A stretch of DNA of 64,000 nt from Yuukianura sp. NJ FZ-2021. Its lineage: Eukaryota. The notes under the pieces were generated by a model. That model was not told the origin of the DNA. It saw nothing but the letters and a program-made list of their open reading frames with translations, and searched no databases. How positions within the stretch are numbered: position 1 is the first letter of the stretch; each line of letters starts with the position of its first letter. Where the stretch lies: positions 11,718,001-11,782,000 of the forward strand of contig CM102290.1 of the NCBI GenBank assembly GCA_046563655.1, given 5' to 3'. The translations under genes were made by a program, and so were the position numbers. Below are positions 13,445 through 58,100 of this stretch, in pieces.

Positions 13445-14029
13445 TTAGCTACCGATACGGATTCTACCGATGAAAAGTGTATCCAATGATGTCAATGCTT
13501 TGCTGTACTGGTTTCCTGTCCAGCATGATACTCATGTCGTTATCGTCATCATTTTAGTGTACTTTCTGTCAATCTGGAATTAACAAGATTCAACTTCAGT
13601 AACTTCTATTAACAAGTTAGTTTGTGCTCGAAAAAGGCAAGTCGTAATAATAATGACCATACGATTTTACCTGTCTAGTCGCCTAACCAAGTTGTCCGTT
13701 TAATAATCGTTGTCCGTCGCTTTGATAACCTTGTCCAAGATTCCTTCACGTCAATCTAAGCCTTCCGACAAAACAACACGAGCAAACAGCGATTACTTGA
13801 TTTCATTCTTAAGATTGAAATCTGTGTGTAAACAACAAGAAATTTAAGCCCCAGAGGTGCAACTAATCCTGAGAATCCGCAGAAACATATGCAACATCCA
13901 AATGACAATTGCGATGCATTACGAAAGCCAAAAAAATTGGAAGATGCAGAGGCCCCAGCGATGCTGAAATTGCAGGGAATACTGGCAGTATGGTTGGAAA
14001 GCCGATGCAGTAAGGAAGTAACCCGAAGA

Positions 14030-14197
14030 ACGCTTCGATACCAAATGACGAAACGAAATGGAGCCCCAATAGACGCTGCAAAGGAATCGCTGACAATCTG
14101 GGAGGAAAACCCAATGGTTTGTCCCACGAACAAGTAGAGCCAAAGAGCCTTAGATACCAAAAGCTGAAGCCAAGGAAGAAAGATGGAGGACCAAAGA
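14030..14197 (+). repeat. ~125-bp dispersed/tandem repeat unit running into the assembly gap
   Basis: Clear similarity to 32400-32590 (ggaatcgctgaca..tgggaggaaaacccaatgg.ttgtcccacgaacaag...gataccaaa.gctgaagc). Confidence 0.8.
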
Positions 14198-14297
14198 NNN
14201 NNNNNNNNNNNNNNNNNNNNNNNNNNNNNNNNNNNNNNNNNNNNNNNNNNNNNNNNNNNNNNNNNNNNNNNNNNNNNNNNNNNNNNNNNNNNNNNNN
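14198..14297. other. Assembly gap (100 N)
   Basis: Run of n in the sequence. Confidence 1.
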
Positions 14298-26300: not shown

Positions 26301-26530
26301 TCTACAGCATTTTTGGAAGTGGGAGAACCACATAGCAGAATGGCTTCGTCACTGGAGAAGATAACGAAAACCCGATTAGTATTTAGGTAGTCCGTAAAGT
26401 AAAAAGCGGTATCTCGACATACTTTTGTGAGGTACATGGTGGATAACAAAACTTACATTTTAGTGACCATGTTTTGACGAAAGTTAGGTGTCTTCCATGT
26501 ATCATCAGTGACGGACGCAGATGTCATCAT
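23397..26530 (-). CDS. MED15: Mediator subunit 15 (KIX domain, Q/M-rich region, C-terminal domain)
   Basis: N-terminal DDTWKTPNFRQNMVTKI..EAI..KNAVEMEGQVFSKAKSK. Poly-Q region at 25506-25970. EKIRELRKY..KMKKLLDILTNP..DLLIKCEAALKK. C-terminal FTVTEVLNNWEMSIRQ. Confidence 0.88.
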
Positions 26531-29966: not shown

Positions 29967-32089
29967 ATGCTTTGTAGCCACACTCGGAGTCCTGTAATTT
30001 TGGAAGGCGGAAATGGTTTGTTTTAAGAATAATTAATGGAAATTGTCATGCTAATGTTTAATCGTTTATTTGAATATTTCTTACAGGAGTGCAAACAGCA
30101 GATCCCACGGCTTCGCTAACTTCACCGGTCAACGTCGGCCAGTCCCTGCAGCATGCTGGCAGCATTTTCAAGGAAGACACACTCGAATGCTACTCAAGGA
30201 ACAGGACGGCGTATCATCTAGTGCTAACGGATATTGAACTCTACTTCCAGGCTGCAAAGGACCCTGAACAAGTAGAACGATATGCTCTGCGGGACTTATT
30301 CGGAGTGCAGACGTACCGACACAAGAAGAAGAGCAGCGAAGGAAATGGAAAAGTTCTTGGATTTGCAGCAGCTTACTTATGCTTCACATTTTATCCCCGA
30401 ATTAAGCGCGGACTCATGTCGTCCAGTAAGGTCAGGGAGAAGATTCAAGTCGTCTTTCAGATCCAGAAGCCAGGATGTACATTTGAAGAGAATTTGAACG
30501 AGGCTTCGTCTTGGAAAGACACTGCCCTGGCACTTCTCAGATCAAAGTTATCCAAGTGGCAGCTTGACAAACTGTACAAAGAGACGTCAAATGGTGGACG
30601 ACGGCAGGGAGAAGCCACAGACAAGTATTCAGAACCTGACTGGATGTCAAATGAAAAAGGGAGTATTGACGATACCAATGCCAGTACACATGAGTTGGCC
30701 ATTTCCCTCTCCAGCCAATCGCTGCTGCTGAGAAAATTTCTTGTCATCGTTAATCCAAAAAGCGGACAGGGCAAAACTCTTACTATTTTTAAGGTAAAAC
30801 TACAAATATTGTCAAGTTTTTTTGGTAATTGGAACCAATACGTTAACGTTTTATGGTGTTTTAGGAATTTGTCTACCCAATTCTTTGTGAAAGTGGTATC
30901 AAGGTCATCCTGCTGGTTACTACACATGCGGGACATGCCCAAAATCTGGCGTTTTCAAAAGACCTGTCTGAATTTGGAGGAATTGTGACCGTAGGTGGAG
31001 ATGGATTGCTGTATGAAGTTGTAAATGGTCTCCGCTCACGTCCGGATGCTCATACTGTCTCCGACGTAAGATCGATTCTCTATTCAACTGTCAAAATTGT
31101 TATTCCTTTGTTTTTAATACAATTTTTTGTACTATTTTTTATTTAGATTCCAGTTGGCGTAATTGCTGGTGGTTCTGGGAACGGCCTTGCTCGTTCCATT
31201 GCGTCCTACTCCGGAGAGAGCGAAGACTACTTCAAAAATCCAGTGCTCACCACTACGTTAGCCGTAGCTCGAGGTCAAGTACTTGCAGTAAATTTGGTAA
31301 GTTTTTCTAAACCTACTGAATTTTCTAGTATTTCAAAATTTTGACAAATGACTTTTGTAGTTGGAGGTTGACGTTGATACCCGAAGAATCTTCGCGTTTC
31401 TATCCGTTGGCTGGGGAATATTGTCCGACATTGACATAGAAAGGTAAGACAATGTTTTCGTCACTTACTGCTACGTGCAACGCTGAAATTGACATTCTCC
31501 ACTAACCCTCACTGAAATTCATCAATGATTATCCGTGCTTTTTTTGTTACAGTGAAGTCATTCGTCCCATTGGAGAAAGTAGATTTACTCTTTGGTCGCT
31601 TCTGAGGTTGGCCAAGTTGAGGACTTACAATGCCCTGGTCAAGTACTCCGTCAAGTTTGGAGACGCTCCGACAGTGATAGATGGAGACTTTGTGAGTGTC
31701 TATGCATCATGCCAGTCACACATTGGGTCAGACATCATCTTTGCTCCACATGCTACTCCAAATGATGGATACATTCATCTCACAATTGCAAAGGGAGACA
31801 TCGGCAGAGCCCGAGCGGCACAGTTTCTGCTTGGGTTGGCTAAAGGTTAGTTTAGTCAGTGTTCAAAACTAATCAACAGTATTTAATCAAATCAGCTAGC
31901 ATTCTGCTTTAATTTCTTATAGGCACACATATTGATGTTCCTGGAGTAGACTACGTTGTGGTGAAAGAGTTCTCAATTTATTCTGCAGGAGGAATACAAG
32001 GCTACTTGACTTTGGACGGAGAAAGAATTGCTGGTCAAACTGTCACTGCTCGAATCGCTTCCAAACCGCTCAATTGCTTCGCATTGTAG
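29967..32089 (+). CDS. SPHK: Sphingosine kinase (DAGK-type catalytic domain), multi-exon
   Basis: FLVIVNPKSGQGK, VGGDGLLYEVVNGL, IAGGSGNGLA, FLSVGWGILSDIDIESE..R.IGESRFT, FAPHA..NDGYIHL, GYLTLDGE. The start exon 29967-30015 is less certain. Confidence 0.9.
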
Positions 32090-32389
32090 TCTTCTATTAT
32101 TCAGCATTTAGGAGAAGCTTCCGTTCATATGTGCAGGCGTGTTTGTACACAGCGAGGGACGCAACAATTTTAAAGTGAAATAATTTTAAACTGTGTTTTT
32201 AATTTTTTTTAGATCAGTGTAATTTGATACTTATGTAATCTCGCAAAAATAGAAATGACAACTAGTATTAAACAATTATTGAACTATCAAACTTTTCTGC
32301 TTATCTAGAAAATGTCTCTTCGCGTAGTTAATGCCTAGAATTGGAGTCTGTCTGAACCCAATTCAAAAACTTTTCGAAATTGAAACAAG

Positions 32390-32590
32390 AATTGCAGGCA
32401 ATGTGGGAGGAAAACCCAATGGCTTGTCCCACGAACAAGGAGAACCAGGAGCTTTTGATACCAAATGCTGAAGCGTAGGAACAACAAGATGGATGACAAA
32501 GACGCTGGAATGGAATCGCTGACAGTGTGGGAGGAAAACCCAATGGTTTTTCCCACGAAAGCAAAGATGGAAGAAAAGAAGCTGAACAAA
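32390..32590 (+). repeat. ~1.5 tandem copies of the ~125-bp repeat also seen at 14030-14197
   Basis: gtgggaggaaaacccaatgg..t.tcccacgaa occurs at ~32403 and ~32527. Confidence 0.8.
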
Positions 32591-32878
32591 AGACAGAAAA
32601 TATTTTGATGCTATTGTTTATTAATAGAAAATTACTACGATTGTATGTACATTCTAACATGAAATACTAAATAACTACTCATAAACCTACAGCTTCATAA
32701 CGAGCGCACAAATAACTATGTACAGTATACATAAAATAGTAGGAAATACTACGGACAAAAGACTGGCTCAGAAGGAGCATACAAGTGTAAAGTCAGCTAG
32801 TAGTAGAAAAAGTAGAAAACTAGAACGTAGAAAATGGCGAGGCTGAAGATGAAGCGTCCGGAAGGCGGCAGTCGGAGT

Positions 32879-35800
32879 TCAGAGGAAGTGCAGCAGGTTC
32901 TGGAGAGAGGCGTTCGGTGTTGCTCCCAGTGCGATTCCAACCAAGTAGGCGAGCTTGTGGGCGTATTGACACGGTGCAGGGACTGCTACGGTGCCAGACC
33001 AGTTGAAGTAGAGGTGGCACATCTTGTACGTCAGTCGCTGGATCTTGTCGGCATCGAGGCTGGACGTGTCGTGGATGATGGTGTAGGAGCAGGGACTCAC
33101 GGTGCCTTGGCGAGCAGTGGCAGCAACCAGATAGAAGTCGTACCTGCAAAGAAACAGCATCTGATTAGAAAAACTTGTCCAGCACAAGAATCAGTGTTGA
33201 ATTCCTGGAAATAAGCGAAGAACTTACCTGTATGGCAAGGTGACGACTGTGTCTACAACAGTTCCTGGAGGAGGATTCTCGGTTCGGGCGCCGCCAGTGA
33301 AGAGTCGCGTGTTGATTTTCTTGGTAACGATGATGTAGGTGAATTTGGGCTTCTCCTGTCCAGTGGCAGAGTAGAGCGTAGTCAGCGTAGCGATGATTGG
33401 CAGAACTTCCTGCATGTTGACTTGGTACATCTGACCCTCGCCCACTCCATCACGAAACATCACGATTCTGTCCGGAAGGCAGTTGTTCACCGCTTGGTAT
33501 GCTCGGATGGCTTCTGCAAAATAAAAAAAAAGAGTGGACTTTAGAAATATGAAAATCAAAATGAACAACCAGAAAAATTATAGTATTTTTTTTTTCAACT
33601 TACTAGAGACTCCAACGCTGAGGTTGCAGGAAAGCTCGTCTTGAGTGGAGTGGAAAGTGACATCGCTGAAGTAAGAAGCAAAGTTGTTTGACGTTGTTGC
33701 CACCAGAGCTCCAACTGATTTGGAATTCCCTCTTCCACCGTGGTAAACATCGAATCCCATGAACATCGTTTTCTGCAAGAAAAAATATAAATCACAATTA
33801 GGAATCATTCAGTGGAAAAATAATAGTTTAGTCCAGCGGAGTAGTCTCGTACCTTCATTGGAAGCTGGATTGACCAGGGATGGCCGCCGAGCTTCGCGTT
33901 GATTTGAATGACAACCTTCGTGCAAATGGACATCACTTGTTTCCCCTGCATGTTCTTGGCCAAAAAGCATTGCGACGGAACTGGAAATCAAAAAAAGATA
34001 ACCAGAATTAGGTTTTGAAAAAATATTTTAAAGATTCTACTCTAGATTTAAAAAAAGCAACTTACTTCCAAAGTCAACCGAGAGACGTCGCTTGACAATG
34101 GCGTAGAGTTGAGGTTTGTTGTTTGGAAGTACGACGAACATCAGCTGAAGTTTGCCACCATGCTGACGAAAGACTTTTTCCACCGTCTGTGTGTAGGTGA
34201 TGGGCCGCAAGTCGGTGAGCTTGATGATCTCCAGTGGCTGCTTGACGGTCATTCCGAGTGGGGCTGCAACTCTTCCCATCGTCTTAACGACGTTGTCAGC
34301 ATCTCCGAAGTTCATTTGAGGAACGATCATCACCCAGCGTTCGAGGTGGACAGCAGACAGCATCTGACGCTTCCGGAAGGCCATGGACCAGTCTTCTTTG
34401 TCATCAGGATTCTCGGGGCGATCTCCAGCGAAGATGATTCCTTCTCTTGGCAGCACACGGCCCTTCAAAGTGGTCAGAGTGGTGGCAAAGTCCATTTCCC
34501 AGTTGTCCAGCACGACCCGATTCTGCAAAAGAACAAAAAGAAAACACAAATTAATTTCCCAAGTCTTGAACCCAGGTTAGAAAATTAAACCAAAAAGTGA
34601 TAGCTGCATGCTTACCTCTGGATTGGTGGTGAGTCGCTTGATGAACTGCGTCAATGTGCTCACTCTTTCGGCTGCTCCTGCATGAAGATGTTTGCCCAAG
34701 TCCTTCATCAGCGTAAAGTTGGCTCGCATGGCATCGGTGAGTCCAGTCATCTGACAAGTCTCCGGAAGCAAGTGGATGGTCGTCGGGGTGTCGAAGTTTC
34801 CTCGGTGGAAATCCTTGTTGCGTGGCTCCACGACGAGAAGTGGTTGATCCATGTCCTTGATGGTCACCGAGTGACGTGCTTGGTAGAAGTCGGCGTACGT
34901 CGTCTGGACTCCTTTGTGGTCGAACGTTGACTTTGGGCTGAGGTCCCAAGCGATGTCCGTGATCTTGTACGTCTTCTTGTTGTAGCTAGTCATCACGATG
35001 GCGTTGAGCAGCTCGTCCGTGGCTGTCGCTCGAAAGTCCCGGGAGTTCTTCCAGCCGTTGATCTGCGAAAGGACGTTGTCCAGACGAAGGACCTTGTGAG
35101 TGACTTCAGCGCAGAGCAGCGTCTCCTTCTCGTGTCTTCGGATTGACGTGGCGAATCCAGGCCACAACTCCAGACGATGACTCGGGATCTTGACGGCAGC
35201 TCCGCTGTCGAAGAAGTTTCTGCCCATCAGCTCGAACTTGAGTCCGTAGAGACATTTCCGCAAGACGAGGTTGAAGAAGGATAGGTACATCGTGTCTTCG
35301 GGCAGCAGTGTTCCAGCCAGTCGAATTCGAATCTGCACTGGACTGTCGTCTTCCTTCCGTAGAGTCACCAGCTCCAGATCTCCATGTTGACAAAGCTCCC
35401 GTTGAGAGTAGAGCGCAGTTCCATCGAAGATGTAGCTCCCGAGTGTCTCCGCGTGGCGTGCGATGAAGGCCTTGGCATGACGAACGTTGTCTTCGTGTGG
35501 AGTCATCTCGACAGAGTACTGGTAGAGGGCCCAGGTTGGCCGCTTGACAACCGTGAAGTAGTTGGCCAGAAGCTGGATGGCAGTTCCGGAAGTTCCTTCC
35601 TTGCCCAGCATCTGCGGTGGCTTGAGGTCTTCTTCTGGCTGCATGACGTAGCGGTGTCCTCCTCGAAGAGTTCCTCGGCGTCCGATTGGTCGACTAGGCG
35701 ATGTGTCCTTGCCTTCAAACCGAAGTTGGGACTGCAGCTCATCTCCCAGCATGAGTCCTCGCATTTTGTCCAAGAAGGAGGTGGATGCTTCTGGGCTGGT

Positions 35801-35950
35801 GGGGCTGTCCAGTCCTCCAGGAAGTCCGTCGGGGTCATCCTTCGAGCGTCCAATCATGCGTCGTCCTCTTCCTCGTGCCCTCATCGGTAGCTTTGGAGAT
35901 CCAACCTTTCCTCCGCGGTACTCCGACGAGAAGGTCTCCTGTTCATCCAT
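32879..35950 (-). CDS. piwi: PIWI-clade Argonaute (Piwi/Aubergine-like), ~879 aa, 6 exons
   Basis: Exons 35950-34616, 34522-34066, 33980-33853, 33772-33604, 33513-33228, 33143-32879 total 2640 nt in frame. N-terminal RARGRGR; GTSG..LLANYF; LELWPGFATSI; PAZ (YNKKTYKITDIAWD..P.STF); TGLTDAMRANF.LMK; GFDVYH, QDEL, FRDGVGEG, CQYAHKLA; ends LHFL. Confidence 0.95.
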
Positions 35951-36161
35951 GGCTGCAGTCGGTGGTTGAAGTCTCCGCTGAGTGTTGAGGTTGTCTTCTT
36001 GTGGTCGAAGTCTCCGCTGTGGTCTTGGTCCTCTGCTGGAGTCGAGTGGAGTTTGGCAGAGTCTTCTTCGGTGATAGTAGTAGTAGTTGTAGTCTCCGCT
36101 GTGTGGTGGGTCTCCGGTGGGGCTTCCTTCCTTCGGTGGGTTGGTTGGAGAGAGTCTTCCT

Positions 36162-36300
36162 GGAGCTCCTTCTTCCTCGAAGTCTGGCGATGGAATGAAG
36201 TCTTCTCCTGGTTTCACCAAGAATGAAACCTCGGTTCCTTTGTTCTTCTTTGTTCTGCTCTCGACCAATCAGAGTAAAGGAATTTCCCCTTTCCTTTGTT
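36162..36300 (-). promoter_or_regulatory. Putative PIWI core/proximal promoter
   Basis: Inr-like TCATTC at 36198-36193. AACCGAGGTTTC at 36236-36225. GAAGGAGCTCC at 36172-36162. CCAATCA at 36265. AACAAAG on the minus strand three times (36238, 36248, 36294). Similar to 47816-47985. Confidence 0.65.
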
Positions 36301-36385
36301 CGCAGGGGCAGGTAGATGGACTTTGCCCTCCACGCATCCCTTTCGTGATCCCCAAGGTGAATTCAATGTCAAACGACCCTAGTTT

Positions 36386-36527
36386 CCCCCAGCAACCGAA
36401 TTTGACGGTCACTTGAAGGTCAAAGGACGGTGGCGTCCCCAGCAACCGAATTTGACGGTCATTCGAAGGTCAAAGGACGCTGGCGGCCCCCAGCAACCGA
36501 ATTTGACGGTCATTTGAAGGTCAAAGG
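36386..36527. repeat. Three tandem copies of a 50-51-bp unit upstream of PIWI
   Basis: ccccagcaaccgaatttgacggtca.t.gaaggtcaaagg; AGCAACC starts at 36391, 36441 and 36492. Confidence 0.92.
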
Positions 36528-36648
36528 CTAAAATATATTGTATTACATATTCTATATCATATTACATATTATATTATATTACAATAAATTGCATATGCTA
36601 AAATGCGAAAACGTGAATCATAAATAATAAAAAAAAAAATAAAATGAA

Positions 36649-36663
36649 GGCGGGAAATTTAAA
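36649..36663 (+). promoter_or_regulatory. E2F + CHR-like (DREAM-type) site upstream of PIWI
   Basis: GGCGGGAAATTTAAA. Confidence 0.45.
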
Positions 36664-39600
36664 TTCAATTTGCAACATGTAGTCATTTTCGGTCCAACTG
36701 CTCACACAAGTCAAAATGTCAATTAAATTCAACCAGATTTCTTCTACAACGACTTTCTAACTAAATTGTTTTGTAAAAGGTATTAGGACTAACTATAGCT
36801 AGCCAGCATTTTCAATTAAAACTTTTTTTTAAAACTTACATTTAAAACTTAAAGCTAAAATTCAACCCTTATTAGCTAATTTCTATGATCAAGAAATTTA
36901 CAAAGAACCAAAACCAATATCTCAAGCGAGGGGACATCTAAATTGGAATTCTGCGTCAAGGACTGTAGACACACAAAATTCGGTGACGACTCATGATAAT
37001 TGTTCTAAAACGTGAATCGTAGTTCGTAGAGTCGTAGACTTCTAGCATAGCGACACTTGCGCGTTAATAATAGGATTGACTTTTTAAAATTCAACCACCG
37101 ATCCATACTAAACATCATTACATCGTTATCGTTGTACTCTAAAACGTCAAGTAGGTTAGGCCATACCGGTGTAATCTAGGTCAACGTCAAAGCATCACAC
37201 ATCAACTATTATAATACTTATTCCTTCAATAACTAAATTTAAGTAACACCGCATTAAGTATTACGCATTAGCCGACTTCGCAAATTTCTGTGTGACCTTT
37301 GACCCGCACCCTTGACATCGGACGATTCAGAGCTGAATCTACATAGTAATGGAAGAAAATGACGAAAAAGTTACACCTCCCCAGCGTTTCCGCATGGCAA
37401 ATGGCCGTTGAAGGCTTCATGGTTTTTAGGTTTATTAGTGTTTTAATCTAGAGTTGCAGCGATCTGTTGTAAGAACTTGGAGAGCGGAGCAGACTGGTGT
37501 GGACGAGGTGAGCGTAACCAGCGTAAACTGCCTTCCAGTCCTCCAGTGCCTTCTGCTGAAGTCAGTTTCTAAAATAGACCAAAGGACATTAGACTCTGAA
37601 GTGATTAGAAGAAGTAGTGCGTGGAGGGGAGGTCCAGATGCTGCCAAGTTAACAGCGGGGAGTAATTAGTCAACTAATCAAGGATTAAGTGGGCACGACA
37701 GCTGTAGAGCCTCTTAGCAACTGACACACCTCCATTGCAGTCCTAAGATGTCTCCCTGTGACCTCCATGGATTGGACACACTGGACGGAACAAACCTAAA
37801 CAGTGCTCAAAGTGTTCAGGATGCTCAGTTTGTACTACTTGGACAGCCAGAAGGAATTCCATGACATCCTGGACATTTTGAATGTTCATAATGCCGAATT
37901 GGATGCTTCCAGAACTTGGCCGGACAAATTTTCCAGTCTGGATGACATCAATTCCAAAAAGTTTTCTTTGTTGACAAACAATTCCTTGGATCATCCCCTG
38001 CTCTGAACCAACCCCCGCCAAAAACAAAGATGTGCGTAGTACGCGCATGGTAAACAAGCTCAAGTGTAACCAAAAGTCACTCCAGATCAGTTCAAAGGTC
38101 AATTTAGCATCAGAAAAGCTGGAGAGTTATGAAAAAGCCCACCAATTTAAAACAAAGCTGCTCCAATTGTAGTAAAAGTATACTGTTGGATTCAGCCCCA
38201 TTTTAAAAGTGACTTTGGCATGTACTCAAAATTTGTCTAAAGAGGATGGACCACTTCTGGTTTGTCTTTTTTGAAAACAATGGTTCGTTTTCTAGAAAAC
38301 AAAACAAAAGAAAGTTCAGTCCAGTTTTGAAAACCAAAACCAAACAGCGTCACTTTTCATTTCCATTCATTCCCAAAATAAACCAAAACTTTTCCGTTTA
38401 CTTTCGCAACTGGCCAAATTTCAAACTTCAAAACGGCTTCTTTCCAACTAATTCTACCAAATTTTGATTCTGTTCTGAAAAAAGAACGAAGAAATGTAAT
38501 GATAATATGAAATTTGAAAGCATCGTAAGAATCGAAACATTTATAGCTGCTTTTAAACCAACGTTGGACCTAAACTTGATAAGGTCGCACTTTGCCCCTA
38601 CCAAATCCCATTTCCCAATTGAAAAAAAAATGACGTCTCTGGTAATTTTTGTTTTTGAATTTGGAAGAAACCCGTATGAACTCGGAATCGATTCCTGAAA
38701 AGTCCAGTTTCCTTGACGACTTCCATGGATCCACGGTAATCTCGAACTAAGGTTCATAATTACTTTTGCGTTTCTCATTAGAAAGACAATTCATAGTAAC
38801 AATGTTATTGTTTCCACAGAAAATGCTTCAAAAGATTTGCTACTTGTATGAATTTCAACGGGATGACCCATATTTCAGGTCAACTTGAATATGAAACTTC
38901 CATAGAAAACAAAAACACTTCAATATTTCCTTAGTTACAAGTGACACCTCCTCCAGCCCAAATAGATTTCGTAATCTACTGCCACCATTAGGAATGCTTC
39001 CAAGCATTCTAAATTAATAGTCGTGTGGGATTTTCCAATTTTGTTCACGTTTTACGTCACCAAGCTAATACTTGGAAAATCCGCCCAAGGATCCACCCAC
39101 GACATACTGTGTTTGGCACACACACCTTCCTGTCATGTCACTTGAACTTCAATTTCTCGTTTTTGCTATGCAGAAATAGTTTTCGGGGAATCTAAATTGA
39201 AAAATGGGAAGGTCAAAAGTATATCATAGGTCGAAGGTCAAACGTAAACTGCGCGTCAGGTCACCGGAGATACGAATCCTGAATGATCGAAATACGATAT
39301 CTGTTCCGGGCTGATGATTGAGTTACAGGACGATGCGAAACCTGATGCACCTTCTTGTTTTTTGTGTCATGGACATCCGAATTCAAGCGTTATTCTCCTG
39401 CCAGAGTCCTGGCAGATGCAAAATTTTGTGCATGACTCACAATATTCACATAGCGCTTGGTTAGTAAAAAGACGCTGATGGAATTGGCTGGGGCCCAATT
39501 CATTGTTGTCCTTCCAGACGGCCTGGTCACGTCCATCTCAGCGGACGGCGACATTTCTGGAAGGAAAGCAAAAAATTGGCCATTACTAGTCGTTAGTTGT

Positions 39601-41709
39601 CCATCTTCAAAAAATTTCCGGTAAGGAAAATTTAGCGAAAAGCTTATTATATTGGTTATTGTTGTGTTGTGTCTTTGGGATTTGTATTCCTCCTGTGACC
39701 TTGCTTTGAAAAAGTGTCCTTCCTCCGCAGAAAGTTGGTTAACACTTGCCTATGCCATTGACTTTGCTTTTGTTACCAACTACTATACTTATAAGAACGA
39801 GGATTAATTGCTTTCGCTCAAATTCTACTGACGTACTTTTGGAATTAACTAACAAAAAAAACATGGATTAAAGTAAACAATTTCATATTTTAGTTTTTTT
39901 GTCGCTTACAAAGTGCCCCACCCACTCCGAATGCCGTCCAGTTTGCGTAGAACAGACGATGTAAACTGCGTTGTAGTTTACAGGGTTGACCAATAACGTC
40001 ATCGCAGCATCCCGACGTTAATCCGGTGCAGGGCAAAGATCGCCTAAAAATAGAACATTAATCCTTCAATTAGTTTAATTTCTACTCGGGCATGGAACAT
40101 TATGTCTTTAGTGGTTCCGGCATTTTAACAAATCGGTGAGCTTTTTTGATCAATGTCTTTGATATCCGATGCTTCAGACAGAGACAAAAGTTTATCGATA
40201 TGTTTTGGCAACTATCCATTTCTGACACAAAATACACCACACCAACAGCATATAGCTTTAGATGTGTTTTTTCACACTTATGTCACACTATCATTGGCAC
40301 TGACAAGACTCTGGCACTTGGCCCATACACAGCATTACAACCTGCGTAAATTTGGACTATTGAAAGTCGGTCACGCCGGAAACCAACTTTGTGACAAACG
40401 GGGTTCAATTTTTATGGCAGTGGGGCGGTTTAAATGGAGGTTGGCCAAGACTTATAGGCTTAACACTTCCCGTCTTCCCACCGGCGAGGTCAATCACCTG
40501 TCCCGGGCCTTCCCCAAACGTTTTTCTCAGTATTTCCGACGATTACGATGATTGGACATGACGATTGATCTGATTTATGAAAAAACAAAAACATGAATCA
40601 GTGAAAAACCAAAGTTGACAACCATGCCCCAACATATCTATTTAAAATTGATACTTCGTCTGTTGCTTACTAATTAACTGATGTCTCTCCTTAACTTGTA
40701 GGCTGCAACTTAACAGTTCAACTCAAATGAACTCTAATGCATTCCTCGAACACTCCGTGACCGTTCACCCCCGCATATCCCACGTCCTGGAAGTATGATT
40801 TAGTTAGTACTTAAGTACAAAAATAGTAAGATTTAGATTCACTTACTCGGAACTAATGGACTCCATACTGGTGGGTGATCATCCTATTGTCGTTTTATGT
40901 TCCAAATGGATGAAGATGAGCAAACAAAAGAAGTCCAGAGATCAAGATGTCCAAGATGAGGAGGAACAGGACACAGGAGGTAGAGTGACATGTCATGCTG
41001 ATGCTGGGGAGAAGCCATTTAGAAACTAATTATCGTAAGATAGCCGCCTTTCAATTACTCAACACTTACTAAGGACTCCCTCCAGAAACTCTCCGTTCAG
41101 TTTCCATCCAACCTCTGTCTGATCTGTTTCTCTTCTCTTTCTCTTGTTGTACGGAATAAACATCACTTACTTCACTACTGTTGCTACTGTCCCAACATAC
41201 TGAAACAATTGATAAAGTAATTAGTTGCTTACAAACAGTAACAGCAAACATAAGAGCATGAGCCTTAATTGTTAAACAGTATCTAAAGTCACAGTGATTG
41301 TTTAGGTATAAAGCCGGCTCCGCTCCAATTGGACAATCTTCTAGCGGCTAAAATTTAGCGTCTCCAGGACTTGTGAGACTGGAAACGTTACCGCTGGTGA
41401 TTGTTGCTAACTTACCCTGTTTTAGTTTTGTGATTAACTATGAGAGCTTTGGGTGTCCGATTGTTGTGTTGTAGCTCTCATTTGTGTCAAATCCCATTAT
41501 CGTCAATCTATTCCGAAATAGAAAGAACTAAATCTACAGTTGAGGAACAGTGCTTGATTTTTAACCCACTTTAACCCTTCAAAGGTCAATCGGATTGACC
41601 CGGCAGGTTTTCGGGCAGATCAAAATCAAACTACTAACTTCTAAATCCATTTAAGGAATTGGTGGACGACAGTCGTCGTGATAAGGTGTGAAGTGCGGAT
41701 AAGTAGAGA

Positions 41710-44590
41710 ATGGAACAAGTTCTGCCAATTCCGCCGGACGTTCCGACGCTAGTTGAGGTTGACCCGATTTTTAGTACGGAAAATACATATCGCTTCTATG
41801 GTGAAACAATTGCGTTCAGTGTCCTCCTCGTCCTTGGATTCATTACGAATGGCCCACTTCTAGTCATCTACTTTCGGTCCAAACACATTCGGTCCATTGT
41901 TGACAAGTAAGTTTTCGCTCTTTTTGACACTTTTAACTTACCACAGTTTCATTGAATTGGTACTTTGAGGTGTGCCAAACCGTTTCTAAAAAGTTGCTTT
42001 CAACAGTTCATTGCGCAACAAAATTTCAATTTTGAGAAATTTGAAAATTTGGGCTGAGGCTGACCTTGGGGGAGGGGGTAGAAATCCATCAGATTTCTTG
42101 TAACTTTCTGAAATAAGGTCTAAAACTAAATTTTTGGAAATGTACAAGGCCTATTCTAGGTGAATTTTTAATTTTGAACAATAATCGTAACTTTAACTTT
42201 ATGTTTTTAAAAAAAAAAAACAACAACAAAACAAACGCTTAGAAGCTACGGACAGAGTCACCACATGACCTTATGTAGGTGGAGGGGGCGCAAGAGCGTA
42301 TCTGTTCTGGTCTGCTTTCACAAGAACGTTCCGGTTTGAGCTACTATCGGCCTTGGCTGAAGGATTTTGTATTTGGAAATGGGATATGGCTTCCATGTGG
42401 CAAAAGTTAGTTGACTTCTGTCCAGATTAAAGTTAATCCAGTTAAGTATAGTTATAGGACGCTGTCCCCTTGTAACTGGCCTACTACGGGGTCATGGGAA
42501 CCTAAATGACGCCGTTCTAAGCACCATGTCAATCTAGAACCAAAAGTCCACGGAAAAGTTGGACTCTACACGTGTAATTCGTCTATTGTTGGGCAATTGA
42601 CACCAATTTTGAACACTGATTCTATTTTTTGTGTTTTTGATTCAGGCTTCTGTTCAATATGCTCATTGCTGATGCGCTGTGTGTCCTCGTTCTCCTTCCT
42701 ACGATACTCATTGACTTGATATTTCCGGAAGAAGGATCTGGTGTTAGTGGCCTCGACGTAGCAGAGTATCTGGTGACCACAGGGTCTGGTACTGCCATTC
42801 CAGTGCCAGTTATGGGATCGTCCAATGCTGCATCACCACTCAGTATTAGCAACAGGAACCTCATGGAGGCTTCAGCCGTTGTGATTCTGGGCAGTACAGG
42901 GAGACCTAGTTGGGCATGCGCCTTCAAGAAGTGTCTTCTGTCCGGAGTCTCAACGGCGTCCATCTTGGCCTCATTGGAAATAGCCGTAGAGAGGTTTCTG
43001 GCAGTCGTCAACCCCCTACACTACCATGAATTTGTGACCAAGACGGGCGTTATGCTCACATCTTCAGTTGGAAGTACCATTGCCATCGGTAAGATAACTT
43101 CCGCAGTTTAGTGGCTCACTTTTATCAATGAAAGTAACTCGGTGGCGCCTTTGTTATGACTTAAGATGAGTCAAACAATAACAAATGTGGACCTTAACTT
43201 CTATGATTTTGTAGTTTCAGCAATTCTGTCGTCACTTGACCCGTGCCAACCCGTGTTCCCTGGCTGTGTGAAGAACATGAGCTCTGTGTCAGACTCGTTT
43301 TGGTGGCCTTGTTACACCCTGGTCCATGTCACTCTCTTCTTCATCCTGCCAATCATTCTCATGACCTTCATTTATATCAAGATTTGGTGGGAGGCGAGGA
43401 GACAGAGAGCCAAGATGAGTCACCAATACAAAAGACCATTCTTCGTCAACGTTCCAAACTATGGTCATCATCCAGACGACGGGTTGAATGTCCATGAAGC
43501 CGGTAAGTCCACAGTTCATGGGAAGTGTTTATTTTTAAGACAAGCGGCCATGACATTTGGGCATGTTTGTATATCTAGCTGTCGAGGAAACGAAGCGAGG
43601 GAAGCGATTCTACATCCACCCAATCCTATTGCGATTCAAGTTGATTGAACGCTTGGTGGCTCCAAGGATGGACCGAGCAGCGCGGGTTGCCATTTGTACT
43701 CTGTGTGTCACAATTCTGTGTTGGGGTCCCTTCTACTTTGTTGAAACGTCGCATGCACTTATGTCGCTTTTGGTAAGTTTTTGAATTATGAAGAATCCAG
43801 GAATCGAGAAGTTAAATTTTACTTTGAAATTTTTGTGGAAAAACTAACAATTTGATTCAATCTTCGTTTTTAGGAGAACAAGTCTGGAATCAAAGCTTGG
43901 CGCCATTTGGAAACAGTCATTCCTCTATTTTTTGCAAGTCTTCATGCCATTATCGCCCCGTTCTTTTATGCCTACCGCTACAAACGAGTACGACACGAGG
44001 CACTGAAGATGTCCGGTTTTGAGCTGTGTTTCCATGGAACCAAATGCATGGACCCTCTCTCTCCACGCAAATCCATTGTCCTTGACTACCATGACATTCA
44101 CCTCAACTCCGCTGCCTCAAAGACCAATCAAATTCTGACTCCAGTTAACTCCGAAGTCGGACTGCATATGAACCTTACAGACCAACATCTCAATCCTCCC
44201 GACCAATCACAATCCTACCACTCTCCGCCAAATACTCCCACCCTCCCGAGATTCCACATCGGAGAGATTCCACATGGACCAATCGGAATGGAGAACGCAG
44301 ACGATAGCTCCTCCTCCAACAACATTCCTCTTCAGGGGCACAATGAATCTCACGTCAGTTTGACTATAAGCGAACCGCCAACGAAGAAGCATTTTCTGGA
44401 TGTTGGTGCATTTTTGCACGGTGTGTCGGCTTGGATTCGATCCTACTCGGAACGCTGGGGAAGTCACCGTGAATCTGTTACCAGCAACTCCTCAATTCTC
44501 ATGCTGCTCAACAACGGTCAAGTTCCGCCAAACCCACTGCCAATCCCTGCCATTCGAATCACTTCGGACCTCCCAATGGCTCAAGTCTGA
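41710..44590 (+). CDS. Orphan rhodopsin-like (class A) GPCR, 5 exons
   Basis: TM1 LGFITNGPLL; TM2 NMLIADALC; TM3 IAVERFLAVVNPLHY; TM5 FFILPIILMTFIYIKI; TM6 CWGPF; TM7 IIAPFFYAYR; long C-terminal tail. Confidence 0.85.
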
Positions 44591-45120
44591 ACAAAATTTA
44601 CACGGAAACGTATCAAACCCACCGCCATTTTCTAATTTTTGGTCTAAATTTTTACCTAAGTTATACCGGATGCTGTTTTAGACTATTTTATGAAAACTGA
44701 ATTTTTCTAAGTTCCAAACCAGCCATGACCAGGGTTTTGTGTATCATGAGCTTAAAAGTGTCTAAATGAACTTGATGCAAAATAAAAGTTGAACACAAAA
44801 ACGTTTTGAATACTGGAAATGAAAATTGAATAAATTGTTATTCCGAGGTAAGTTAGACGATACAACACAACAAGTGTAATCGAACTTAAGGTATGAAATA
44901 ATATATGAGTTAACATAACAAAAGTTAACTAACTTAACACATACGCTTATCGAAATGGAGACTTAAGGGCTAAATGTTTCCTAAATCTATGCGTAATTCT
45001 ATAGGTTCTTCGTTGTCAGTCCGCTAAGAGGCTCCAAGGCGATGAGCGATGGGTTCCCGCGTCGACGTCCAAAAATTCAGCTGCTGAGACAGACGAGACT
45101 CCCCCCTTGGTCCATCTTCA

Positions 45121-45221
45121 AGCGATCCAGCATCCGTCCATGGTCCACGTCGAAGAAAAGTTCCAGCGATCCAGCATCCGTCCATGCTCCAGGTCGAAGA
45201 AAAGTTCCAGCGATCCAGCAT
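45121..45221. repeat. 44-bp tandem repeat (~2.3 copies) in the NHL gene 3' region
   Basis: agcgatccagcat starts at 45121, 45165 and 45209. Confidence 0.85.
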
Positions 45222-45271
45222 TCAGCTACGATCCAGGTCGATTGGGCTGATGAGACGGTCCACCTCGTAGA

Positions 45272-47737
45272 TCAGCCAATGAGACGAATGCGCATCCCGC
45301 CACGGTCCACGATACAGATGAGGTCGTCACAGGTACAGGCGAATACTGGCATCTCCAGCTTGATGTCGTGTCCCAGTTTCCGCTCCAGAGTGTCCAGCAG
45401 TTCTCCAGAAGGATTGACATATCGAATGGCATTTCGTCTCGAGTCGCAGATAAGCAAGTTCCCCGTGCGTTGTTCCAGTGTGATTCCTTGTGGGCGTACG
45501 GTGATTTCTCCTGGTCCAAACTTCTTGTGGAAACTGAGGTTGAGGTCCAGCTCCAACGTGACAGCCAAGTTGAAGTCCGTGACGAAGATCCGAGTTCCTG
45601 AGAGCCAAAATTAAAAAAAAACTATTAGTACAGTTGAAGTGAACTTAATAAAATCCCTGAAATTTAATTTAAAATTATGTTCAAGCAGCTAGACAACAAC
45701 TTTTCAATTTCGAATTGTTGAATTTAGTATAAAAAGAAACTTACCGGTAGAGTCAAAGGCGATTCCACGAGGTTGGTCAAACTGCTTCCGAAACTCGTAA
45801 GGATTCTTCTCAAAAATGGAGTACTTGCGCAGAAACGTTCCGTCTGCTCTGAAGAGTTGGACACGATGATTTTTGGAGTCAGCGACAGCAATGAGTTCTC
45901 CGTTAGGCGACGCAGCGATTCCCCACGGAAACGAAAATTGTCCATCCTGACAACAACAAAAATTAAAAAATTGTTAAACGAACCTTGGCCAAATAATCAA
46001 AAAAAAAAAAAAACATTCGCATAGACTTGGCCATATTTTTCTTAAGTTTTACCTGGTAGCCAAATTGTCCAAATTGCTTCAAAACGGATCCATCCAGAGA
46101 GTAGATGATGACAATGTGGTTTCCTTTGTCCGTGACGTACAGACGCTGTTGAACGGAGTCCAGAGCAATGCCTGTTGGGTGGTACGTCTCCATTGGTGGA
46201 TTTGGAAATGGCCATCCCCAGCGATCCGTCAGCGTCAACTCCTTGTTGTGTACAGTGAAGATCAGGATTTCTGCACCTTGTCGATCCGCCGTGAAGAGCT
46301 GTTCAAAAACAAAATTCAAAATTAGCAACTTCCAACATAAAAAGAACTAAAATTTTTCATTATTTTTGGAATTACCTGTCTAGTGGCAGAATTGTAAGCC
46401 ATTCCCCATAGCTTGAACTTGGACAGCATAAAAGATGAGCTGTAGGTCGACGGTTGTAGTTGCGTTCCAAATGGAGTTGAGGTGTCGTCCTGCGCATGTG
46501 TTGGATCCATTGATACTTCGATAGGGAACGGACTTCCATCGATGTTCTTCTCGAACTCAGACAGTACTACTGCGACTTCGTACACCTCCGGGCAGTCTGC
46601 CCAGAAGGAACACACGATTCGGATCTGCGGCTTGTTCCGGTCCTTGCTCAGCCGAACAGTGACCGAATTCCCGCTGCTGTTGGAGACGATGACATTGAAG
46701 GCAGCAGGATTCGTGATTCCATGCGGTTGCTTCGAAGCGATGAAGAAGATGACTTCGCGATGCATGACCTGGGCTGGGCAGGATGGATAGGTCACGTAGT
46801 CTTTCGGTCCTCGTTGAAATGCATCCGTACTCCAGTCGTCCTTCAATGGTTCCCCGGTGGCCAAGTTTCCCATTGGAGGTGCCGATGGACACGGATACTG
46901 CTCAACGTGACTGATGTTGCCGCTTCCAAAGTAGTTGAAGTTGCTGAATCCGTACTGCGCAGGCTTGATCTTGTTCATTGGAGGAGCAGCAGGCTGGAGG
47001 GCAGAGCTGAAGGTTTGCGATTGCGTCTTCTTGAGTCCTGGTGCCCTGTCGAACAGTTGAGTGCTGTTGGTCTTCGGTGGACCTGAAGACGGCGGAGTAC
47101 TGCCCGAAACAGCTCCAGAGAAGCCTCGATATCCAGTGCTGACAGCGTTTGAAACGGGTGGGGCTGACCAATCCAATCCAGTCGTTGCAGATCCAAACCA
47201 TCCATAGGTGGAAGCAGGAGCAGCGGGAGGTTGAGGTGACATCCAGCTGAGGAATCGCTGTGATTGGTTCATCTTGTCCTTGTGTGATGGGGAGTCCGAC
47301 GGGCTCATCGTTGCAGGAGTGTTGGTTGTCCGACGTGGGTAGAATCCCGAGGAAGTGACTGAAGCCAGAGTTGAAAATTGTTCGACGACGGTGTCTTCTG
47401 TGCCAGCGTTGCTGATGTCCACGTCGTCCATGACAGCAAGACCTGCCAGAGTGCCAAAACGATCCGGCAGTGGAAGTGAGTAGTCATCGTTGCTGGAGCT
47501 GGAACACGGAGTTGAGGAGCTGCTGCTGTCGTTGCCGTGGAGTGGTGGAAATCCTGGTGGAGGCGACGTCTGCTCAGCATAGAAGGCCTGGAAGTAGTTG
47601 AGTCCTCCTCGTGTAGACCTTGTCCAGGGGCTGCTCTCCTTCAGTGCAGTTGAAGCCCAGGGGCTGCTGTCCTTCAGTGAAGTCTCGGAGTCCTGCCCGT
47701 CCCCGCTTCCAGTCCTCGCGTTGAACGAAGAAGTCAT
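45272..47737 (-). CDS. Filamin-repeat + NHL beta-propeller protein with a disordered N-terminus (TRIM-NHL-like, no RING/B-box), 4 exons
   Basis: Exons 47737-46376, 46298-46053, 45946-45745, 45597-45272. Filamin-like segment ends YEVAV..IDGSPFPIEV. NHL repeats HPTGIALD..LYVTDKGNHIV, FSFPWGIAASP..VADSKNHRVQLF, FDQPRGIAFD..IFVTD, RPQGIT..LICDSRRNAI. The ORF is open to ATG 47866; ATG 47737 is preferred because of its Kozak context and the putative Inr. Confidence 0.85.
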
Positions 47738-47815
47738 GGCGGTGTTCCTCCGGACCTCGATGTGGTGTAGCCTGATGTCGTGCAGTCCGTCGTCTTCTTC
47801 TCCAGTTGGTAGAGA

Positions 47816-47985
47816 GGAGCTCCTTCCAGGTCGAGCTCCGGAATTGGAATGACAACTTTTTTCCATTTCACTTAGAAAGAAACCTCGGTTTAGGCGGTTT
47901 TTGGAACAAAGAAGATCTCATCAGCCAATCACAAGCGAGCTCCTTTGTTTCCCATCAGCCAATCAGAAAGGAGCTTCTTTGTTCC
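47816..47985 (-). promoter_or_regulatory. Putative core/proximal promoter of the NHL gene
   Basis: TCATTC at 47852-47847. AACCGAGGTTTC at 47890-47879. GAAGGAGCTCC at 47826-47816. A duplicated 34-bp unit carries CCAATCA (47925, 47959) and CTTTGTT (47943, 47977). AACAAAG at 47905. Confidence 0.65.
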
Positions 47986-55124: not shown

Positions 55125-58100
55125 ATGCCACGGAAGCGATTGCCTGTAGGGCCCGGCGGGTAAGATGGATAAATTTCTGTTTCTTCTCGCTCCTTACTTC
55201 ATGTTTTATTTAACTGTGGATGGAGGAATTTGTAAAGTTAACGATGAATACAAGAACACTATTGTTTGAAACTGGGCATAGGGAAGTACTGATTTTGTTG
55301 TCTATGTCTTTATCCTTATTCTTTTAGAACCAGTCTGGCAAAGCCTGAGTTGTTCCGTGCTCAAGCCCGAAACTTGGACTTGGCGTCGTGTATAATGGAG
55401 GAAGTAGCTCTCGAGGGACTCGATGGTATCACCTTTCAAGGTACATTTCATTCCGTTTCAACATATGAGCACAACCTGGTGCTAACACTTTGAGAAATGT
55501 GAAATTAATGATATCGTCCATGATTTGAATTTAGCCTTACTTGTCAGACTCGCTGCACGTCCGAAGTTTCATTTCAAGATTACTGAAAAAACCAAAGGTT
55601 ACGTTTGGGAAGTGGCCAAAAGACAGCGGCACTTAACAGCGTATTTGTTGGAGGAGAGTAGAGCAGACTTGGTGCTGTTTGACCGACGGAATTCCGTTGA
55701 TGAGCGTGGAAATATGTATGAACCGGTATGTAATGGGGTGGGGGAACTTGGACAACGAGAAATTTAACTACACGTCTTGTTACAGATCTCTGCACCAGAA
55801 GATATTTACCCGTATCATCCTATCTATGACCAGAAGGCCGGAATACGCGGATCCTGTAAAGAATATTATACTCGTAGACCATACACTTCCGTTGCTCGTC
55901 GGATGAAATATGAGACGGTGCAAGAGAAGTATGTCTTTACATCCTTGTGCGATTCCATTCTCGTACACCAAGGTTTATAATAATTTCGCGGTTTGATTTT
56001 TCTTAGGTGTGGAAACCGATTAGTGTTCGTTGCTCCCCAGCAGCTTCGTGAGAAAATGTTTATGTCAGATGATGCTGGCGTTGATCTCGGGGAATTAACA
56101 ATCATCCAGTATTGCATTGTGGAGAGAGTTGCAAGGTGGGCTGCCTAACTTAGACTATTAGGCATAACCCAGGATTAGCAAAAACCTAAAGTCTGTGAAT
56201 TTAACTTCTAGAGCTCGATATCTTGGTGAGGGGACAAGGGGGAAGGTTAGCCTGGCGTCAATGAAGATCGATCCAAAGTCTTCCTTTTACCAGCGAAAGT
56301 TGCTTTTGAAGAAGAACCTTATTACCAAACAGGTAGAACCTCCTAAATTTAGTAGTAATTTAGCATATAGACAATGCTAAATAGGTAGTCCTTGGTTTTG
56401 CTTACACATTTTTTTTATCTTCAGACTCTGACGATGAAGTTCGGGCCAACCCATGTGACCGCTGGAGTTTCTATTCTTCACCTTCCAAAGTTTTTCACCT
56501 ACTACGAAACTGTTCTAAAAAGTACAGTTAGCAAGGCCATCAAATCAATTGTTTCTACGCCAAACAACATGATAGAGATGTCACAACTTCGCGCTGCTCT
56601 TGGAAAACACCAAGTTCAAAATCTACTTTCGCCCGAGTGTCTTCAGATTTTCGAAGAAGTAGTAAGTGACACGGTGTGACAAGCATTAGTTTTTAGCTTA
56701 GTAGCTAAATCTAATAATTCATTTGTGTTTGAAGTCACTTCCTTACCATGAAGCTCATACATCAGCAGAATATCAAATGGATGCTGGTCCCGAGAAGAAG
56801 GTGAAGATAAGTCAGAGAGTCGTTAAGTACATGAAACTTCGCGATCCTCGAATTACCCCAGCGAACTTCAGTAATCTGCTCAGTAAAGGTGGAGATGAAA
56901 AGGAGGAAATTGAGGATACTTCTGATGCGTACTTGCCAGTTCGTAAGTTGCTTTGTTTCTGATGTAACACATATTTCCTAAGTAACTTTTGTTTTATTGT
57001 TTTAAGGATTCCATACTACCCAGTCGTCCATTCTACATAGGTTCATGCATTTTATTTTCGAGTCCAAGGCTCGTGGCCTCTCTATAGCTGAATTGAGTGA
57101 GAAAGCTGATGTAACTCAACTGGATGCTCGTAGTGCTGTTCGTTTTTTTCAAAGGCACAAGATAGCGATTCCCATCCTTGAAGACAAGAAAAAGACAAAG
57201 CAACATCGGTTAGAACAAGCAATAATTCCAACACTTTCATAATAGATAATAATGTTAAAATTTTGTTTGTAGCTATGTCTACTATAAATTCAAGGAAGCA
57301 AATCGCAATTATCAGACTATAGAAGCCTCGGAGGTTCAAGATCCCTCATATCCTGGGCCATCAAATGCTTCTCAAATCCCCCTGTTAGATCTCGAACCGG
57401 TAATTTGACATTCCTTATAAATATTATAAATTTTGAAAATCAAAACGTTTTTATTAAAATAAGAAACGAAAAACATTTCATTGGCAATTTTAGGACCAGG
57501 AGGCACTGGAAGGTGAAATAATTTGGACCGTTGGTGATTTGGAAATTGCTTCGGCAGGGCGAGCTCTTGGAACGGCAGAGGAAAACGTTGAGGTAGTTCG
57601 CAAAGCATCCAGTACTACAACAAAGAATGGACGAATTAGGAAAAGCGTGTTGGCACGATCTAAGTTGCCAAAGAAGAAGCGAAGTACACTCAGCTACAAG
57701 GACGCGGACGACGGAGCTACTGTTAGCCTAAGACTGACTGCTCAAGTTCGTCAACTCATGGAAACTTTTCCAGCGAACTGTGACCCTGACACTGAGGAAT
57801 TCAGTGATACTGCGGCTGAATTCGAAAACCGTTTCAACCAGTCTGAGGAGAAAGATTTTATTCCTATTCGAGAAGCAGACAAGTCCAGAACATTGATGTG
57901 TGTTAATCCAGCGGGTTGGCAAATTCTTGCGGAATGGGCCATCTTGCGACCGGTGTAAGTCAGTTTTAATTACTTAACACTGATTGTTTTAAATCTACGT
58001 TTGTATATGTAAGGTTTCTTAAATTCTTGTTCCAGTTTTGGCAGGCTACCTTCCTTTGCGACGACAAGAACAACGGAAAGAGCAAACTACATTTTGGAAC

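Follow-up and report, generated by a model that had tools for sequence, protein, structure and literature searches.

The window analysed here is a 64,000-nt stretch of the genome assembly of Yuukianura sp. NJ FZ-2021 (GCA_046563655.1, contig CM102290.1, positions 11,718,001 to 11,782,000 of the forward strand), and its first nucleotide is position 1 in all coordinates given below. A gene map was built by a Pfam scan of 214 six-frame open reading frames (ORFs) of at least 70 residues. It comprises about 12 genes, of which two, a PIWI gene and a filamin-NHL gene, are each preceded by a copy of a 75-bp block that is probably a selected promoter shared by both. The copy upstream of the PIWI gene (36162-36236) was designated W1 and that upstream of the filamin-NHL gene (47816-47890) W2, both lying on the minus strand. 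The A of the motif TCATTCC was set as +1 (36196 in W1 and 47850 in W2), with the block extending from -40 to +35.

The PIWI gene occupies 32882-35950 on the minus strand. From the ATG at 35950, the first coding exon extends to about 34580; it contains PAZ (1.7e-28), ArgoN and ArgoL1, and the Piwi domain is spread across three ORFs in the exons at 32882-33808. The best named relatives of the first exon were Aub/Siwi proteins of Collembola (springtails) and insects, with identities of 43-44%.

The second gene occupies 45272-47737 on the minus strand. Its exon boundaries were read by eye, giving exons at 47737-46376, 46298-46053, 45946-45745 and 45597-45272, which together hold 711 codons plus a stop codon. 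The first-pass annotation, made from the sequence alone, had named it a filamin-NHL gene, and this name was borne out by NHL repeats in the exons, by best solved relatives of the TRIM71, Thin, TRIM2/3 and Brat kind, and by a Filamin repeat in a relative of exon 1. For exon 1 itself, no Pfam family was detected even at E <= 10, and a word-based homologue search returned 0 among 8000 candidates. An exhaustive search with residues 300-455 found two relatives, P0208 and P0209, encoded on contigs of 6.1 kb and 16.1 kb, respectively, among 1.84 billion representatives; residues 310-455 aligned to P0209, whose Filamin repeat, at 27.9 bits, exceeds the Pfam cut-off of 26.9.

Each of the two starts with M, ends at the exon 1 boundary of the NHL gene and is without the TRIM module. 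Neither RING nor B-box turned up in exon 1, in any of 50 small ORFs or in any larger minus-strand ORF (47.9-56.3 kb). The gene would thus encode a filamin-NHL protein like TRIM71 in which no TRIM module (RING, B-box and coiled coil ahead of the filamin and NHL domains) can be recognised. Since the two relatives start with M and stop at the same exon boundary and no exon encoding a RING or B-box was seen upstream, W2 is placed ahead of the first coding exon. Because exon 1 has only these two relatives, both lacking the TRIM module and sharing the exon boundary, the gene looks restricted to a narrow lineage. Directly 3′ of its stop codon, at 45117-45241, lies a tandem repeat with a 44-bp unit, 2.4-2.8 copies and 88-95% matches, which is probably inside the 3′ untranslated region (UTR).

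The 75-bp block in the window

W1 and W2 were identical at 53 of 75 positions in an ungapped minus-strand alignment with an offset of 11654 (71% in the repeat search). On recomputation, the coordinates, the offset and the count given in the first-pass annotation were exact, as were the motif positions in both copies: AACCGAGGTTTC at -40..-29, GTGAAA at -21..-16, TCATTCCA across +1, TCGA at +17..+20 and GAAGGAGCTCC at +25..+35. Identity dropped to background immediately beyond -40 and +35, and the sole gain from a gapped alignment was a short CTCTCTnCCAAC match beyond an 8-nt gap. The distance from the block to the first ATG, measured from +1, was 246 nt for the PIWI gene and 113 nt for the NHL gene, and the first downstream ATGs were indeed those at 35950 and 47737.

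The window was compared with itself in direct orientation, using 75-nt ungapped windows at all offsets. Only seven offsets reached at least 52/75, one being that of the W1-W2 pair; the other six trace to repeats, either local (2-587; 54408/54673) or a single dispersed one. All other offsets peaked at 45/75 or below, and the W1-W2 similarity is therefore beyond chance. The 22 mismatches between the two copies fell into 9 runs, as compared with 15.7 ± 1.8 expected (P = 0.00039; 100,000 permutations), and match runs of 12, 11 and at least 8 occurred jointly in 0.2% of permutations. No identity was left in the spacers between the block motifs. Such clustering of mismatches is a footprint pattern and not one of uniform decay, and it agrees with the earlier remark that identity is concentrated in discrete motifs.

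A third copy was not found in the window on either strand, the runner-up matching 29 of the 53 positions common to W1 and W2. The shared 12-mer and 11-mer each occurred at W1 and W2 only, with up to one mismatch allowed. The block is thus absent from the other genes in the window, as had been noticed in the first-pass annotation.

A further copy at the PIWI gene of another species

A PIWI alignment was scanned over metagenome contigs, giving 265 pattern matches, from which 224 relatives and finally 80 loci (273.5 kb) were retained. Both strands of these loci were scanned with the 53 positions common to W1 and W2. One locus, L001, matched 34 of the 53 positions at 544-618, and the other 79 matched 29 or fewer. 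Local alignment, with a median score of 22 across 320 comparisons, placed L001 (46) above the runner-up (30). The L001 contig is 3073 nt long and carries a single-exon ORF for a PIWI N-terminal region (471 codons, from the ATG at 707), which was identical to the first exon of the window PIWI gene at 224 of 427 aligned residues. Its block lies upstream of the PIWI ATG in the same register as the window copies. It is an independent copy of the block ahead of a PIWI gene, whether orthologue or paralogue. The first-pass annotation had proposed that conservation be sought in related species; it was found at this one PIWI gene among the 80 loci.

L001 was identical to W1 at 45/75 and to W2 at 41/75 positions. 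With the comparison anchored on the initiator (Inr)-like TCATTCC, a background was derived from 948 Inr-like sites in the window and the loci, leaving out the 7 Inr bases and scoring 68 positions. In these terms the identities were 46/68 (W1-W2), 38/68 (W1-L001) and 34/68 (W2-L001; z = 4.05), the background was 17.2 ± 4.1 of 68, and the next best scores were 31, 29 and 30. Across the three copies, 34 of 75 positions were invariant. In the upstream half these were A at -40, CGAG at -37..-34, TTTC at -32..-29, TT at -27 and -26, T at -24, A at -10 and A at -7. At the Inr and beyond they were TCATTCC at -2..+5, CC at +10 and +11, GA at +13 and +14, G at +19, AAGGA at +26..+30 and CTC at +32..+34. 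No further instance of this 34-position pattern was present in 663,036 positions of the window and the 80 loci, where the runner-up had 23/34. Scanning the metagenome with a 22-base spaced pattern from the upstream half of the block gave 0 matches, and a PIWI scan of prokaryote genome contigs for contaminating arthropod DNA gave 23 pattern matches, with 0 relatives among them.

Chance similarity can be put aside almost completely. Single motifs are not rare, since two or more matches to the 12-mer, and likewise to the 11-mer, were seen in 8 of 100 shuffles each. Against chance stand the self-comparison, the clustering of mismatches, the outlying score of L001 in the same register in another species, and the Inr-anchored scores, on which this explanation was rejected.

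Neutral divergence between W1 and L001 is high. At four-fold sites the two PIWI genes were identical at 28 of 66 positions, as compared with a random expectation of 25.5%, and a Jukes-Cantor estimate from these sites gave a neutral divergence of approximately 1.1 substitutions per site. The flanks of W1 and L001 did not align beyond -60 and +50. Within these limits the two were collinear out to -58, where both carry AACAAAG, whereas W1-W2 identity ends at -40. Recurrence of the block at the same register upstream of another species' PIWI gene favours selection over an origin as a random fragment or one derived from a transposon.

A transposon or dispersed-repeat fragment that came to lie upstream of both genes by chance is accordingly a poor candidate, to which we give little credence. 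Dispersed repeats do exist in the window, for example 14020-14197 versus 32330-32630. The block, however, had no other copy in the window, and in the 80 loci only that of L001, which occupies the same position ahead of a PIWI gene at a neutral divergence of about 1.1 substitutions per site. Its ends showed neither terminal inverted repeats nor target-site duplications by eye, its conservation goes motif by motif instead of being uniform, and Rfam gave 0 matches.

Core-promoter slots, upstream sites and proposed start sites

The consensus sequences used for comparison were those of Drosophila, taken from the excerpted text of PMC5580651: TCA+1GTY for the Inr, RGWYV(T) at the strict position +28..+32(33) for the DPE (downstream core promoter element), and CGANC at +18..+22 plus CGG at +27..+29 for the motif ten element (MTE). 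The Inr-like TCATTCC, at 36192-36198 in W1 and 47846-47852 in W2 (both minus strand), was invariant in the three copies, with the proposed A+1 at 36196 and 47850, respectively. The TCATTC in all three fits the arthropod Inr form TCAKTY and differs at +2 from the Drosophila TCAGTY.

The shared TCGA (+17..+20) overlaps the MTE contact at +18..+22. In W1 this slot reads CGAGG (36175-36179, minus strand; 3 of the 4 specified bases of CGANC), in W2 CGACC (47829-47833, minus strand; 4/4) and in L001 TGGAC (2/4); all three copies read AGG at +27..+29, where the MTE consensus has CGG. The DPE slot at +28..+33 lies inside the shared GAAGGAGCTCC and reads GGAGCT in W1 (36164-36169) and W2 (47818-47823), both on the minus strand and matching RGWYV at 4 of 5 bases, and GGATCT in L001, with 6/6 for RGWYVT. 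Downstream of it, CTCTCT (GAGAG on the other strand) lies at +43 in W1, +35 in W2 and +32 in L001.

No TATAAA or TATAWAW was found in -500..+130 of W2 and L001 or in -500..+260 of W1. The first-pass annotation had suggested an undescribed promoter class that is both TATA-less and DPE-less. The empty TATA scan in all three copies upheld the first half of that description. The second half was not supported, because TCGA and GAAGGAGCTCC fall in the MTE and DPE slots, and the downstream half of the block appears to be of a known arthropod core-promoter kind. What does stay without a name is the region -40..-16.

In that region, the BRE/TATA slot (BRE, TFIIB recognition element) is occupied by the element CGAGnTTTCnTT at -37..-24, which to our knowledge matches no known core-promoter motif. 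It reads CGAGnTTTCnTTnT in W1 (36220-36233, minus strand) and lies at 47874-47887 (minus strand) in W2, and W1, W2 and L001 agree at 11 of its 14 positions. At -21..-15 the window copies have GTGAAA(C/T) (36211-36217 in W1), and L001 carries GTTTC (GAAAC on the opposite strand) at 564-568 (-20..-16); this may represent a site that underwent a flip in orientation. The W1 sequence pairs with GGTTTCA (-34..-28) as an inverted repeat.

Further upstream, both genes have CCAATCA, as the first-pass annotation had stated. For the PIWI gene it lies at 36265-36271 (plus strand), a reverse CCAAT at -75..-69 in the context GACCAATCAG, which we take to fit the NF-Y consensus. The NHL gene has two, 34 bp apart, at 47925-47931 and 47959-47965 (plus strand; reverse CCAAT at -81..-75 and -115..-109), inside a 34-bp tandem duplication (47916-47983). 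Viewed as ATTGG, the reverse box is at -73 in W1, -79 in W2 and -85 in L001. CCAAT is bound by NF-Y, and a CCAAT approximately 60-100 bp upstream of the start in a promoter without TATA, as seen relative to the proposed +1 in all three copies, is the arrangement of an NF-Y-type TATA-less promoter. The several AACAAAG/CTTTGTT sites reported upstream of both genes were also present, three at each; AACAAAG is a high-mobility group (HMG)/Sox-type site. Those of the PIWI gene (36238-36300) are on the sense (minus) strand at -48, -58 and -104, L001 also having one at -58, and those of the NHL gene (47905-47983) are sense at -99 and -133 and antisense at -61.

Both kinds of site were concentrated within 142 nt that precede the two blocks. 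This sequence contains 6 of the 27 AACAAAG/CTTTGTT sites in the window, as compared with 0.06 expected (P = 6e-11, post hoc), and 3 of the 8 RRCCAATCA sites (P = 9e-7). Farther from the PIWI gene, at 36386-36527 (about -190..-330), lies a 50-bp tandem repeat (2.8 copies, 92% matches) with three sense TGACCTT about 50 nt apart, or about one per unit. The other strand of this motif, AAGGTCA, is presumably a nuclear-receptor half-site, and the repeat may be an upstream regulatory array.

The sequence downstream of the proposed +1 has the character of a 5′UTR. The proposed PIWI 5′UTR (35951-36196, minus strand) is 246 nt long, has no ATG and is composed of A 34, C 35, G 20 and T 11%, with GCAGCCATGG as the start context; that of the NHL gene (47738-47850, minus strand) is 113 nt long with no ATG, a T content of 14% and the start context ACCGCCATGA. 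Over the three genes, ATG was absent from the 482 nt between +1 and the start codon (246 + 113 + 123), as compared with 24 occurrences in 1200 nt upstream. W2 has one ATG at -16 and none from +1 to 47737. At the proposed +1, the T content falls from 26-27% to 11-15% (27% to 11% in W1) and the C content rises from 20-23% to 29-35%. ATG loss is partly explained by the T-poor composition, and it is only for this reason that reading frames stay open upstream of the ATGs. Together, the loss of ATG, the fall of T and the rise of C would fit a start at the proposed +1. The possibility that the block is coding was rejected, as it lies in different codon phases in the two genes and its conservation has no three-base rhythm. 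Within the proposed PIWI 5′UTR, at 35962-36112, there are three copies of a repeat of about 30 nt with the core CAGCGGAGACTTC/CAGCGGAGACTAC.

These observations bear on two other explanations. In one, the block would be an ordinary cluster of transcription-factor sites (TEAD-type CATTCC plus palindromes) in a proximal promoter or 5′UTR enhancer, the true starts being elsewhere. CATTCC, AACCnnGGTT and GGAGCTCC do resemble sites of factors binding as dimers. However, the MTE and DPE slots, the ATG loss and the switch in composition all agree with a +1 at the A of TCATTCC, and the block covers the conventional extent of a core promoter; we regard such a cluster as improbable, though less so than a transposon fragment. 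In the other, the block would act in RNA, as a 5′UTR structure or a regulatory site in the transcript. W1 folds somewhat better than its shuffles (z = -2.43), whereas W2 (z = -0.26) and L001 (z = -0.22) fold no better than theirs, and the three copies fold differently. Moreover, half of the conserved block is upstream of the likely start, and Rfam, applied to the whole window at gathering thresholds, gave 0 matches. An RNA element is therefore very unlikely.

Origin of the probable shared promoter and relation to known systems

The reading we favour, with fair but far from full confidence, is that the block would be a selected TATA-less, NF-Y-assisted core promoter of the Inr/MTE/DPE type with an unnamed upstream element, old at the PIWI gene and present as a second copy at the NHL gene. 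Its architecture appears old at PIWI because the PIWI gene of another species keeps the same register. The reverse CCAAT boxes (-69 to -85) would presumably be bound by NF-Y, and the AACAAAG clusters would serve as HMG/Sox-type sites. The NHL-gene copy, 11.6 kb from the PIWI gene, would have arisen by copying of about 75-95 bp of the PIWI promoter or would belong to a wider promoter class that both genes share; neutral spacers would have decayed since, and the positions contacted by factors would have been kept by selection. With the same initiation machinery and upstream factors acting at both genes, co-regulation would be expected. The data themselves establish the similarity with its statistics, the conservation between species, the registers of the motifs and the change in ATG and base composition at the proposed +1; the start site, the binding factors, the co-expression and any role in the germline are inferred.

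Several points weigh against this reading. TCATTC deviates at +2 from the Drosophila consensus TCAGTY, and CATTCC is also the TEAD/Scalloped site, so that the block may be anchored on nothing more than a common factor-binding site. W1 and W2 fail strict RGWYV at +31, having G instead of Y, and L001, with TGGAC, fails the MTE consensus. Both consensus sequences, DPE and MTE, are degenerate and of few bases, and a match to them alone is weak evidence. L001 could be a paralogue instead of an orthologue of the window PIWI gene, and the support comes from three sequences. Deep conservation of the block would also be unexpected, because the promoters of germline piRNA factors are reported, in the excerpted text of PMC11229233, to evolve fast in Drosophila and other insects.

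How the second copy arose was considered from the 41 positions that are not invariant. W1 equalled W2 at 19 of these, W1 equalled L001 at 11 and W2 equalled L001 at 7, and none agreed at 4 (chi-square versus equal shares, P = 0.048). W1 and W2 thus seem somewhat closer to each other than W1 is to L001, which allows two readings, namely copying of the core promoter within the lineage or concerted change at sites of the same factors. The matches confined to W1 and W2 include the 6-nt run GTGAAA (-21..-16), and most of the spacers between motifs are fully mismatched, a pattern more in keeping with sites under selection than with recent copying. Recent gene conversion was rejected, as no identity is left in the spacers.

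The copies may alternatively belong to a larger class of dedicated promoters, such as one for a set of germline or stem-cell genes, with the same -40..+35 grammar and a specialised factor, their likeness being due to shared constraint and not to local copying. The abrupt end of W1-W2 identity at -40 and +35 while W1 and L001 are collinear to -58, the W2-L001 score, which is still 34/68, and the lack of remaining identity in the spacers are all in line with it, as are known gene networks built on a single motif, such as those of the ribosomal-protein genes (TCT) and the Hox genes (DPE) (PMC5580651, in excerpt). On the other hand, only 2 of the approximately 12 genes in the window carry the block, the scan of 663,036 positions yielded none further, and the 19 extra positions shared by W1 and W2, as compared with 11 and 7, lean to a closer origin or concerted change. 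We consider a wider class possible but the less probable account. Its most specific form, held just as tentatively, would be a dedicated and as yet undescribed core-promoter class of springtail-like hexapods, in which CGAGnTTTCnTT (-37..-24) is locked to TCATTCC and AAGGAnCTC and a specialised initiation factor wires PIWI with the TRIM71-like regulator and possibly a larger germline set, the arrangement having persisted over a neutral divergence of about one substitution per site. With three sequences, either local copying or membership of a wider class would account for the data.

The 34 of 75 positions fixed over two unrelated genes and two species point to a much tighter constraint than that on the usual short, degenerate core-promoter motifs, and to a factor that would read the -37..-24 element. 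If the starts and the co-expression are true, the block would be a compact, testable promoter, from a hexapod that is not an insect, for cells that express PIWI and are probably germline, and a piRNA effector and a TRIM71-like RNA regulator would be a case of promoter sharing. If there was local copying only, it would be a clean case of a copied core promoter with contact positions retained.

The remaining genes of the window are two copies of proline dehydrogenase arranged tail to tail (1043-2060, plus strand; 3070-4201, minus strand), DUF4807 (about 10851, plus), LSM (12175, plus), Tmemb_185A (12941-13444, minus), a DRG GTPase (21901-23159, plus) with an exon 88-90% identical to springtail proteins, as would fit a springtail-like hexapod, Med15 (23400-26452, minus), a DAGK-like kinase (30074-31847, plus), a rhodopsin-type receptor (42641-43645, plus) and a TFIIIC subunit (56168-58551, plus). 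A tandem repeat of about 324 nt lies at the window start (2-587). A dispersed repeat of about 120 nt, with the core GGGAGGAAAACCCAATGG, a nearly conserved tail ending in CCCACGAA and ends that can pair, was found at 14020-14197, 32330-32460 and 32450-32630; the first copy adjoins a run of N (14198-14297) and the other two are just 3′ of the last PIWI exon. At 6090-6284 and 6645-6842 there are two arrays of a 15-nt unit (CGACAATCCAAAAAT), with about 12.7 copies each; separated by about 360 nt, one array is the reverse complement of the other, and the pair resembles a foldback.

Among known control systems of piRNA genes, Ovo (CNGTTA) and A-MYB control genes of the pathway through a promoter motif that is shared and conserved across animals, according to the excerpted text of PMC11789646. 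Unlike these, the window promoters have no CNGTTA near the start: neither CNGTTA nor TAACNG occurred in -500..+260 of W1 or -500..+130 of W2, and L001 has one TAACNG at -361. If the starts and the co-expression hold, the block would be a counter-example to the fast turnover reported for piRNA-factor promoters. The promoter of mouse Miwi (Piwil1) lacks TATA; it requires a CCAAT box for NF-Y at -97/-93 and also has an E-box for USF (PMC3355075, in excerpt). Like Miwi, the PIWI gene of the window is a TATA-less PIWI-family gene with a CCAAT within 100 bp of the proposed start. It differs, as does the NHL gene, in the lack of the E-box CACGTG, in the reversed CCAAT and in the presence of HMG-type AACAAAG sites.

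The known system closest in architecture is the Drosophila-type TATA-less Inr plus MTE/DPE promoter, which is read by TFIID and TRF2-dependent, as far as described in the excerpt of PMC5580651. The block resembles it in the Inr-like motif at the proposed +1, the conserved putative contacts at +18..+22 and +28..+33, the lack of TATA and the size of a focused core promoter. It differs from that type in having TCATTC instead of TCAGTY, G instead of Y at +31 in the window copies, a conserved unnamed element at -37..-24 and a downstream motif far longer than the consensus, GAAGGAGCTCC being identical at 11/11 positions between W1 and W2 and AAGGAnCTC being present in all three copies. With the TCT and DPE networks it has in common a precise core-promoter grammar, which in those networks is used by functionally linked genes and here by just two genes and one foreign PIWI.

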